Assembly (NCBI RefSeq): GCF_046105845.1
Contig: NZ_CP151004.1
DNA from: Escherichia coli
Lineage (GTDB): Bacteria > Pseudomonadota > Gammaproteobacteria > Enterobacterales > Enterobacteriaceae
Length of the DNA stretch: 64,000 nucleotides
Strand: one strand, 5' to 3'
The translations under genes and the position numbers were made by a program. Within the stretch, counting starts at the first letter, position 1. Each line of letters starts with the position of its first letter. The notes under the pieces were generated by a model. It was not told the DNA's origin. It made no database searches and saw only the letters and a program-made list of their open reading frames with translations. This document shows positions 74 to 41,090 of the stretch, piece after piece.

Positions 74-1369
<1,296 letters not shown>

Positions 1370-1469: not shown

Positions 1470-3404
1470 TTAAGACGATTTACGTACGCGCAAATACCAT
1501 TCGCACAGTAAACGCACCTGTTTACGGGTGTAGCCTTTTTCCATCATACGGTCGACAAAATCGTCGTGTTTCTTTTGCTCGTCGGTTGACGTTTTGGCGT
1601 TAAACGAAATAACCGGCAACAGCTCCTCGGTATTGGAGAACATTTTCTTCTCGATAACCGTGCGCAGTTTTTCATAGCTGGTCCAGTTCGGATTGCGTCC
1701 GCTGTTATTCGCTCTGGCGCGCAGTACGAAGTTAACAATCTCGTTGCGGAAATCTTTTGGATTACTGATCCCCGCCGGTTTCTCGATTTTCTCCAGCTCG
1801 GCGTTAAGAGACTCGCGGTCAAACAACTGCCCGGTATCCGGATCGCGATACTCCTGATCCTGAATCCAGAAATCCGCGTAGGTAACATAACGGTCGAAAA
1901 TGTTTTGCCCATATTCGGAATAGGATTCAAGGTAGGCCGTCTGGATCTCTTTGCCAATAAACTCGGCATATTTCGGGATCAGATAACCTTTCAGGAACTC
2001 CAGATAGCGTTCTGCCTGCTCTTGTGGGAACTGCTCGCGCTCGATCTGCTGTTCCAGGACGTAGAACAGATGGACCGGGTTTGCCGCCACTTCTACATGA
2101 TCGAAGTTGAACACGCGGGAGAGGATCTTAAACGCAAAACGCGTCGACAGACCGTTCATCCCTTCATCGACACCGGCGTAGTCACGATATTCCTGATACG
2201 ACTTGGCTTTGGGATCGGTGTCTTTCAGACTTTCGCCATCATAAACCCGCATCTTTGAATAAATGCTGGAGTTTTCTGGCTCTTTAAGGCGCGAAAGAAT
2301 GGAAAAACGTGACAGCGTTTCCAGCGTGCCAGGGGCGCAGGGGGCGTGAGTCAATTCACTGTGATTAAGCAATTTCTCGTAGATTTTGATCTCTTCGGAA
2401 ATGCGCAAGCAATACGGCACCTTCACGATGTAAACACGATCGAGGAAGGCTTCGTTGTTTTTGTTATTACGGAAAGTGACCCATTCGGATTCGTTCGAGT
2501 GGGCGAGAATAATCCCGTTGAACGGCAGGGCGGAGATACCTTCCGTCCCGTTGTAGTTACCTTCCTGAGTGGCGGTTAGCAAGGGATGCAGCACTTTAAT
2601 CGGTGCTTTAAACATCTCAACGAATTCCATGATCCCCTGGTTGGCGCGGCACAGTGCACCGGAATAGCCGTAGGCGTCCGGGTCATTCTGCGCGTAGTGT
2701 TCGAGTTTACGAATATCGACTTTCCCAACCAGCGCGGAGATGTCCTGGTTGTTCTCATCACCGGGTTCCGTTTTGGCGATAGCAATTTGTTGCAGAATTG
2801 ACGGCCAGACCTTCACTACCCGGAACTTAGTGATATCGCCACCAAATTCATGCAGGCGTTTTGCCGCCCACGGCGACATGATGGTGCCGAGATAACGGCG
2901 AGGAATGCCATACTCTTTTTCCAGAATCTGCGCATCTTCCTGCGGATTGAAAAGACAGAACGGATGATCGTTGACCGGGCTACGCTCACCGTTGGCGCTC
3001 AATACATAAATCGGTACGAGCTGCATTAATGATTTCAGTCGCTCAGCAAGCGATGATTTACCCCCACCCACAGGCCCCAGCAGATACAGGATTTGTTTCT
3101 TCTCTTCCAGCCCCTGAGCCGCGTGTTTCAGATAAGAGACAATCTGTTCAATCGCGTCTTCCATGCCGTAAAACTCTTCAAATGCCGGATAACGTGCTAT
3201 GACCCGGTTAGAAAAGAGTCGAGAAAGTCTGGGTTCCTGGGCTGTATCGACCATGACAGGCTCACCGATAGCCATCAATAGCCGCTCAGCCGCGTTGGCA
3301 TAAGCACTGCGATCTTGCCGACAAGTGGTAAGAAACTCCTGCAGTGTGAACTCTTCGTCCTTGGCAGCTTCATATCGCTGGCGATAGTGATCGAATATAT
3401 TCAT
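1470..3404 (-). CDS. yeaG: YeaG, PrkA-family serine protein kinase
   Basis: 644 aa ORF with P-loop (LLGPVGGGKSS); matches remembered YeaG; synteny. Confidence 0.9.
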   Translation of the reverse strand: MNIFDHYRQRYEAAKDEEFTLQEFLTTCRQDRSAYANAAERLLMAIGEPVMVDTAQEPRLSRLFSNRVIARYPAFEEFYGMEDAIEQIVSYLKHAAQGLEEKKQILYLLGPVGGGKSSLAERLKSLMQLVPIYVLSANGERSPVNDHPFCLFNPQEDAQILEKEYGIPRRYLGTIMSPWAAKRLHEFGGDITKFRVVKVWPSILQQIAIAKTEPGDENNQDISALVGKVDIRKLEHYAQNDPDAYGYSGALCRANQGIMEFVEMFKAPIKVLHPLLTATQEGNYNGTEGISALPFNGIILAHSNESEWVTFRNNKNNEAFLDRVYIVKVPYCLRISEEIKIYEKLLNHSELTHAPCAPGTLETLSRFSILSRLKEPENSSIYSKMRVYDGESLKDTDPKAKSYQEYRDYAGVDEGMNGLSTRFAFKILSRVFNFDHVEVAANPVHLFYVLEQQIEREQFPQEQAERYLEFLKGYLIPKYAEFIGKEIQTAYLESYSEYGQNIFDRYVTYADFWIQDQEYRDPDTGQLFDRESLNAELEKIEKPAGISNPKDFRNEIVNFVLRARANNSGRNPNWTSYEKLRTVIEKKMFSNTEELLPVISFNAKTSTDEQKKHDDFVDRMMEKGYTRKQVRLLCEWYLRVRKSS

Positions 3405-3507
3405 GGTATGCCGTCCTTTCGTTTTTTAGCACAGGTTAAGAGCCGTTCATATGAATAGTAGAGGCTCCCGGAAGAGGTAAACTGAACGACGTCTCTTGCT
3501 AAAACAC

Positions 3508-3523
3508 AGCAACTCTCATGCCA
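3508..3523 (-). promoter_or_regulatory. sigma54-type promoter motif (minus strand reads TGGCAT-N5-TTGCT) about 100 nt upstream of yeaG
   Basis: GG-N10-GC spacing read directly; yeaG is known to be nitrogen-starvation (NtrC) induced. Confidence 0.45.
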
Positions 3524-3839
3524 TTTTATCGACGATGAGAACAACGTGCCCGGTGATACACCTTCAAAATTAAGCGTAGATGGCAAATGGAAAACTTGCC
3601 TGCACGGCTTTCTTAATTTCAATGGCATATCAACAACTCATCCATAAATTTTGCATAATTAATGTAAAGACCAGGCTCGCCAGTAACGCTAAATTCATTT
3701 GGCTGTAAGCGCGGTGTCATCCGCGTCAGGAAAATTAAACAGTTACTTTAAAAAATGAAAACGTAAAAAGGTTGGGTTTCGATGTATTGACGGGTAAACT
3801 TTGTCGCCCGCTAAACATTTGTTTAAGGAATGATTAATT

Positions 3840-4586
3840 GTGACCAAACTCAAACTTCTGGCACTTGGAGTGCTTATCGCAACGTCTGCAGGCGTAGCGC
3901 ACGCTGAAGGTAAATTTTCCCTGGGCGCAGGCGTAGGTGTCGTTGAACACCCATATAAAGATTACGATACCGATGTTTACCCAGTACCGGTAATCAACTA
4001 TGAAGGCGATAACTTCTGGTTCCGTGGCTTAGGTGGTGGTTACTACCTGTGGAATGACGCAACGGATAAACTTTCAATTACCGCTTACTGGTCGCCGCTT
4101 TACTTCAAAGCGAAAGACAGTGGCGATCACCAAATGCGTCACCTGGATGACCGTAAGAGCACCATGATGGCTGGTCTGTCTTATGCTCACTTTACCCAGT
4201 ACGGTTACCTGCGTACCACCCTGGCTGGCGATACCCTGGATAACAGCAACGGCATTGTTTGGGATATGGCCTGGTTGTATCGTTACACCAACGGCGGCCT
4301 GACCGTGACCCCGGGTATCGGTGTGCAGTGGAACAGCGAAAACCAGAACGAATACTATTATGGCGTATCGCGCAAAGAGTCCGCTCGCAGCGGTCTGCGT
4401 GGCTATAACCCGAACGACAGCTGGAGCCCTTACCTGGAGCTGAGCGCCAGCTACAACTTCCTCGGCGACTGGAGTTTTTACGGTACCGCGCGCTACACCC
4501 GTCTGTCTGATGAAGTTACTGACAGCCCAATGGTGGATAAATCCTGGACTGGCCTGATTTCTACCGGGATCACCTACAAATTCTGA
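3840..4586 (+). CDS. mipA: MipA, MltA-interacting outer membrane protein
   Basis: 248 aa ORF with signal peptide, GTG start; ends YKF typical of outer membrane beta-barrel; matches MipA. Confidence 0.9.
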   Translation: MTKLKLLALGVLIATSAGVAHAEGKFSLGAGVGVVEHPYKDYDTDVYPVPVINYEGDNFWFRGLGGGYYLWNDATDKLSITAYWSPLYFKAKDSGDHQMRHLDDRKSTMMAGLSYAHFTQYGYLRTTLAGDTLDNSNGIVWDMAWLYRYTNGGLTVTPGIGVQWNSENQNEYYYGVSRKESARSGLRGYNPNDSWSPYLELSASYNFLGDWSFYGTARYTRLSDEVTDSPMVDKSWTGLISTGITYKF

Positions 4587-4616
4587 TAATGCATCTTTCC
4601 AGGGCATTTTGTGCAT

Positions 4617-4643
4617 AAAAACAGGGCGTCATGCCCTGTTTTG
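4617..4643 (+). terminator. rho-independent terminator after mipA
   Basis: hairpin AAAACAGGGC-gtcat-GCCCTGTTTT followed by T-rich run. Confidence 0.7.
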
Positions 4644-4675
4644 CATTACGGTGGTGCAATACCTGGGAGGAAACA

Positions 4676-40717: not shown

Positions 40718-41074
40718 AGTCGCTGCCATTTATTCAGATAAAGAGTGCGTGGATGGTAGCAGAATTTCGCTTTGCGTACCGCCTGTTGTTAAGTGATTTG
40801 ATCGATGGTTGTTAATGATGTCAACGATGGCGCAAAAAATGCCCGCTTTTGGTGCGCGCTGCGTCAGAATGGCGCAGTAATTTCCAGTAAATTTCGTCAA
40901 TGATCACAATTCCAGAATTATATTTTACTTCTGCATAACATTGCGTTTTTTATTCTTTTTATTCACCCACATCGCAAACGTATTCACTTTATATGCACTT
41001 TAAATGCATATGGTTTGGTTATAACTCCTTGATTTCCAGTTAGCCTCCGCCGTTTATGCACTTTTATCACTGGC

Positions 41075-41090
41075 TGGCACGAACCCTGCA
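41075..41090 (+). promoter_or_regulatory. sigma54 promoter motif TGGCAC-N5-CTGCA upstream of astC
   Basis: GG-N10-GC read directly; ast operon is known to be NtrC/sigma54 dependent. Confidence 0.6.

Follow-up and report, generated by a model that had tools for sequence, protein, structure and literature searches.

The stretch of DNA that was analysed, 64,000 nucleotides in length and referred to here as the window, originates from Escherichia coli. A 601-base segment around the motif discussed below is present in 5425 of the 5426 complete E. coli genomes, where it is annotated with yeaG and mipA. The first gene of the operon, yeaG (1470..3404, minus strand), encodes a PrkA-family serine protein kinase; its open reading frame of 644 amino acids starts at 3404 and matches the NCBIfam PrkA family serine protein kinase equivalog with 1342 bits. 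The second gene, yeaH (74..1357, minus strand), belongs to the DUF444 family, and a DUF444 gene is the next gene after yeaG in every genus fetched. mipA is divergent from yeaG and starts at 3840, and the spacer between the two genes comprises 435 bp (3405-3839). We also note that yeaG of the laboratory strain E. coli K-12 AG100 (NZ_LN832404.1) carries an insertion of ~182 bp after codon 13-15 (at ~840-1025 of the fetched locus), and that the gene has received another annotated start in that genome. The window is without this insertion, the ends of which resemble IS2 terminal repeats.

A sigma54-type -24/-12 element, the 17-mer ATGGCATGAGAGTTGCT (3508..3524, minus strand), is situated inside the mipA-yeaG spacer, in sense orientation to yeaG. 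Its 16-nt core TGGCATGAGAGTTGCT at 3523..3508 reads TGGCAT-GAGAG-TTGCT, with GG at 3522-3521 and GC at 3510-3509, which gives the GG-N10-GC arrangement. The initial annotation had read the minus strand in this way and placed the motif about 100 nt upstream of the yeaG start; the reading is correct, and 103 nt separate the end of the motif from the yeaG ATG (3404). The annotation had also proposed scoring the site with a position weight matrix (PWM) for sigma54. The matrix was derived from 41 intergenic E. coli sites defined by ChIP-seq, from which yeaG was excluded (leave-one-out). The yeaG site scores 15.9 bits; only one sequence in the window scores higher, and in the set of 42 real sites it ranks 21st. 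The top match of the window is CTGGCACGAACCCTGCA (41074-41090, plus strand), the promoter of astC. Both this 17-mer and that of yeaG are found in the sigma54 ChIP-seq tables, and none of the five other high-scoring 17-mers of the window that were queried is listed there.

Taken alone, the motif does not exceed chance expectation. For the pattern TGGCANNNNNNTTGCW, 0.63 occurrences are expected in the window and one is observed; 46 of 100 shuffles contain it at least once. Markov-random sequences of 64 kb contain 0.52 sites that score as high as the yeaG site or higher. Within the 435-bp spacer and in sense orientation, ~0.002 such sites are expected. The motif is convincing because of this sense intergenic placement, its conservation, and the published data. 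A second sigma54-like site, TTGGCATAAGCACTGCG (3295-3311, plus strand), with a score of 13 bits, is found antisense in codons 32-37 of yeaG and recurs in other genera including Yersinia. It is absent from the sigma54 ChIP-seq tables, and its conservation (11-13 bits across genera) most likely reflects coding constraint.

The conservation of the -24/-12 element was examined in 80 yeaG loci, fetched with one genome per species, by scanning the 500 nt upstream of each. The motif TGGCA(Y)-N5-TTGC(W), searched as a regular expression, is present in 24 of the 30 Enterobacterales loci scanned, and TGGCA(Y)-N5-TTGCT is the best upstream PWM match there. The carriers include Escherichia, Citrobacter, Enterobacter, Kosakonia, Pluralibacter, Erwinia, Pantoea, Serratia, Rahnella, Brenneria, Dickeya, and Tatumella, among others. 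Scores of the motif in these loci range from 14 to 17.7 bits, and its distance to the yeaG ATG is 78-138 nt, except in Brenneria (226 nt); the best antisense matches in the same upstream regions, which serve as a control, reach 1.3-10.6 bits. An alignment of 16 Enterobacterales genera (A1) reveals that TGGCA and GTTGCT are invariant and that the 5-nt spacer between them is variable, at a mean column identity of 47%. The motif was not found upstream of yeaG in Yersinia, Edwardsiella, all Vibrionaceae, Shewanella, Aeromonas, and the Alteromonadales loci scanned, and it is likewise missing in the scanned lineages in which mipA has been lost or replaced. Yersinia and Edwardsiella retain the mipA-yeaG arrangement and lack the motif. 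In Enterobacter sp. Bisph1 the motif is missing and a dlt-like operon takes the place of mipA, in an insect symbiont of the genus Pantoea the motif and mipA are both missing, and in Candidatus Pantoea persica the GC of the -12 element has changed to TC. What the present analysis shows directly, from sequence, is that the motif exists, where it lies, and how far it is conserved.

Upstream of the -24/-12 element the spacer harbors a sigmaS-type extended -10 element, TCTACGCTTAA (3570..3580, minus strand), which agrees with KCTAYRCTTAA at every position, the C at -13 included. This consensus has a single match in the 64 kb against 0.18 expected, and the CTAnnnT core of the element is invariant in all 16 genera of A1. 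A distance of 57 nt separates it from the -24 element. The sigmaS promoter of yeaGH probably corresponds to TCTACGCTTAA, with a predicted start at ~3566-3564, i.e. ~69 nt upstream of the sigma54 start. The assignment fits the report that Salmonella yeaG, together with its 5' non-coding region, is ~220-fold RpoS-dependent in stationary phase (PMC4330354), a dependence that was published for the gene. An alternative -10 element, CTACTAT (3461..3455, minus strand), is weaker and is conserved in Enterobacteriaceae only. A scan of the spacer for sigma70-type promoters returned only two consensus matches, both on the plus strand, which is about the number expected from shuffles.

Further upstream, a conserved block, GGATGAGTTGTTGATATGCCATTGAAATTAAGAA (3612..3645, minus strand), consists of a GTYATTGAWAT core and an A-rich tract, and corresponds to the invariant columns T121..A143 of A1. 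It would occupy -52..-80 relative to the predicted sigmaS start and -115..-148 relative to the sigma54 start. The block resembles an IHF site, the consensus of which is WATCAANNNNTTR. Its distance to the sigmaS-type -10 is constant at 55-57 bp in 12 loci. Helical phasing of the block relative to the -24 element was considered, as the observed distances (105, 114-119, 136-138, and 167 bp) are suggestive of multiples of 10.5. This was rejected, since the block is fixed relative to the sigmaS-type -10 and the spread within Enterobacteriaceae amounts to half a turn.

Taking C3509 as -12, transcription from the sigma54 element is predicted to start at ~3497 and to yield a leader of 93 nt (3405..3497, minus strand). 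The predicted length agrees with the "distance 93" listed for yeaG (PMC4591121) and with the -93..+63 5'UTR construct (PMC10954441). McQuail et al. took the yeaG 5'UTR as -93..+63 and reported that the small RNA SdsR pairs at -31..-22 (PMC10954441), which corresponds to CCTGTGCTAA (3426..3435, minus strand) in the window. Within this region GTG is invariant in A1 and CCTGTGCT (3435..3428) is nearly invariant. The leader folds no better than shuffled sequence (z 0.47) and matches none of the families in Rfam. We also note that CTTCCGGGAGC (3463-3473, minus strand), at ~+25..+35 of the predicted sigma54 transcript, is conserved across families, with its T and GG.G columns invariant. This element may fold into a small hairpin whose loop is UCCG.

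EcoCyc and two sigma54 ChIP studies already document the sigma54 promoter of yeaGH. Binding by sigma54, an association with NtrC, and induction by nitrogen starvation have all been shown in published work. Bonocora et al. (2015) reported the identical 17-mer as the intergenic sigma54 ChIP-seq peak OS18, assigned to yeaG at a distance of 93; OS18 is flagged as an EcoCyc predicted promoter that is confirmed by their ChIP-seq data (PMC4591121). In Salmonella, Samuels et al. found by ChIP-chip that TGGCATGAGAGTTGCTTT upstream of yeaG is bound by sigma54, and that yeaGH is up 2.5-fold in the presence of the constitutive activator DctD250 in an rpoS-defective LT2 strain (PMC3844500). A plasmid-borne fusion of the Salmonella yeaG promoter to lacZ was sigma54-independent in the same study, with activity in the rpoN mutant that was equal or higher. 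Brown et al. reported an NtrC ChIP-seq peak at yeaGH (PMC4066584), and Figueira et al. observed that yeaG mRNA rises 36-fold at nitrogen run-out (PMC4664914). A review describes two adjacent yeaGH promoters, one sigma54-dependent and one sigma38-dependent, and counts yeaGH among the most strongly induced operons of the NtrC regulon (PMC6299236). yeaG is not listed in the main text of a gSELEX study of the RpoN holoenzyme. The accessible literature contains neither a mapped 5' end of yeaG nor a measurement of yeaG in rpoN or glnG mutants. The initial annotation had linked the motif to nitrogen-starvation control of the yeaG operon; OS18, the Salmonella ChIP-chip result, the NtrC peak, the 36-fold induction, and the phylogenetic footprint support such control via sigma54.

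NtrC sites were searched in the spacer with the consensus at up to 3 mismatches, and none was found between 3405 and 3839. The best NtrC-like site there has 5 mismatches in 13 positions, which is the mode for random windows of 435 bp. Paired NtrC sites of the TGCACC-N5-GGTGCA type are not present ~100-250 bp upstream of the yeaG promoter, and in 25 orthologous loci, scanned over 1.2 kb of upstream flank, no proximal NtrC site is conserved. As a positive control, the same search at astC located two 3-mismatch NtrC sites 215-235 bp upstream (40840-40876). The peaks of Brown et al. (2014) were considered as a means to locate the enhancer. Their 80-bp intervals overlap or abut the centre of the sigma54 motif at glnK, glnH, astC, nac, ddpX, and argT. 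These intervals cannot place the enhancer, because the astC interval, too, overlaps or abuts the motif centre even though the NtrC sites are located more than 200 bp upstream.

Taken together, the site is very probably the sigma54 (RpoN) promoter of yeaG-yeaH, activated by phosphorylated NtrC on nitrogen starvation and located downstream of a tandem sigmaS-type promoter. In the proposed mechanism, RNA polymerase-sigma54 would bind TGGCAT-N5-TTGCT and form a closed complex, which phosphorylated NtrC would remodel with ATP on nitrogen starvation. Transcription would then proceed from ~3497 and produce the 93-nt leader, which would contain the ribosome binding site as well as the region paired by SdsR. 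Expression of yeaG under general stress and in stationary phase would arise from the sigmaS-type promoter ~69 nt upstream.

The element may alternatively act mainly as a brake. A stably bound but inactive sigma54 closed complex would then, provided that the sigmaS assignment holds, sit at ~+43..+58 of a transcript made by sigmaS or sigma70 polymerase, transcription from the upstream promoter would be blocked or dampened while NtrC is inactive, and the promoter role would be secondary. The sigmaS-type -10 located 57 nt upstream of the -24 element is consistent with such an arrangement, as is the equal or higher activity of the Salmonella yeaG reporter in the rpoN mutant (PMC3844500), and at relA P2/P4 bound sigma54 polymerase has been proposed to antagonise the promoter next to it. 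However, the 36-fold induction on nitrogen run-out and the association of NtrC are explained most simply by activation. We regard a predominant brake as unlikely, and we note that the two roles are compatible.

If the motif were a chance occurrence devoid of promoter function, nitrogen induction would have to arise from the sigmaS promoter through ppGpp and accumulation of RpoS. The statistics of the motif by itself, the ~220-fold RpoS dependence of yeaG in stationary phase, the lack of a proximal NtrC site in the spacer, and the gSELEX study in which yeaG is not reported are all in keeping with this explanation. It is nevertheless highly improbable: sigma54 ChIP signals from two species coincide precisely with this sequence, TGGCA and GTTGCT do not change from one family to another even as the bases between them drift, and the induction by DctD250 takes place in rpoS-defective LT2 (PMC3844500). 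A genuine sigma54 promoter that responds to a different enhancer-binding protein instead of NtrC would agree with a spacer devoid of the NtrC consensus and with the block at 3612-3645, which lies at the usual enhancer distance and is unlike an NtrC site, but we give this very little credence in view of the NtrC ChIP-seq peak at yeaGH, the publications that class the operon as NtrC-regulated, and the fixed position of the block relative to the sigmaS-type -10 rather than to the -24/-12 element.

The reading of the site as an NtrC-activated sigma54 promoter leads to the question of where NtrC would bind. Two NtrC-like palindromes, TGCATCTTTCCAGGGCA (4590-4606) and TGCATTACGGTGGTGCA (4642-4658, 2 mismatches), form a candidate remote enhancer. 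They are placed 52 bp apart, centre to centre, just past the mipA stop, where they flank the terminator hairpin of mipA (~4617-4642), and their distance to the yeaG -24/-12 element is 1.08-1.13 kb. Shimada et al. (2021) showed that NtrC binds the mipA-yeaE spacer in vitro (gSELEX peak 1,863,654; gel shift), attributed this binding to yeaE, and found that the nitrogen response of yeaE depends on rpoN and ntrC (PMC8743547). From the start of mipA to that of yeaE there is no sigma54 site above 10 bits; the best matches, with 9.7 and 9.2 bits, are inside mipA. A sigma54 promoter for yeaE near the pair was consequently rejected, as these best matches stay below 10 bits and fall within mipA.

Conservation of the pair was followed in longer flanks from ten genera. 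The pair is present there at a spacing of 51-52 bp in Enterobacter, Kosakonia, Serratia, Rahnella, and Dickeya, which together with Escherichia makes six genera, and Erwinia and Pantoea possess weaker versions. In Enterobacter and Serratia, which are without yeaE, the pair is kept between the ends of two convergent genes, a place that calls for no promoter. In Yersinia and Edwardsiella, the genera without the sigma54 motif, the pair is a remnant or absent. From -3.2 to +1 kb in the genera that carry the pair, the yeaG -24/-12 element is the sole conserved non-coding sigma54 match of at least 11 bits; Erwinia and Pantoea each have one further match, of 16.9 and 15.5 bits, respectively, which is located ~1.9 kb upstream and is not conserved. 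A role of the pair that is specific for yeaE is less favoured because of the lack of a sigma54 site for yeaE, the retention of the pair in genera without yeaE, and its co-occurrence with the yeaG motif.

Tentatively, the pair at 4590-4658 may therefore be a remote NtrC enhancer for yeaGH that loops out the whole mipA gene, an assignment that we regard as somewhat less likely than not. Against it stand the lack of a reported in vivo NtrC peak at the pair, the small number of genera, which are phylogenetically related, and the nitrogen response of yeaE itself. If the assignment is true, the pair would be a natural bacterial enhancer that acts over 1.1 kb across a gene, which would be unusual, and the published binding of NtrC at the "yeaE promoter" would be read differently. 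The published work on YeaG in nitrogen starvation rests on the sigma54 promoter that is re-identified here. Finding a known promoter again adds nothing new by itself, and it confirms that the motif call and its interpretation are sound. The question of the enhancer, i.e. how yeaGH is strongly induced with no recognisable NtrC site nearby, is the only part that might matter.

The element does not differ from the OS18 promoter of E. coli yeaGH and its Salmonella counterpart at STM1285; the 17-mer, the gene, and the distance of 93 nt are the same, and it is that promoter. A further likeness exists with relA, where the sigma54 promoter P4 is similarly situated among other promoters, beside the sigma70 promoter P2, and where antagonism by the bound sigma54 polymerase has been proposed (Brown et al. 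2014). At yeaG, in contrast, the partner promoter is of the sigmaS type and is located upstream, and interference is only putative.

The astCADBE promoter (41074-41090, plus strand) is, like that of yeaG, a sigma54 promoter of the NtrC regulon, and its PWM score is of a similar class. This operon is also co-regulated by sigmaS. The two promoters differ in their surroundings, as astC has its NtrC sites 215-235 bp upstream (40840-40876) and yeaG has none in the 435-bp spacer. For yeaG the mechanism of glnAp2 would be expected, in which the closed complex is remodelled by phosphorylated NtrC bound at paired palindromes on one face of the helix. The NtrC sites of glnA are located at ~-110 and -140, and its enhancer is known to act at kilobase range only if it is moved there artificially. 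This is in contrast to yeaG, where the sole NtrC-like pair in the vicinity is located ~1.1 kb away, beyond mipA.
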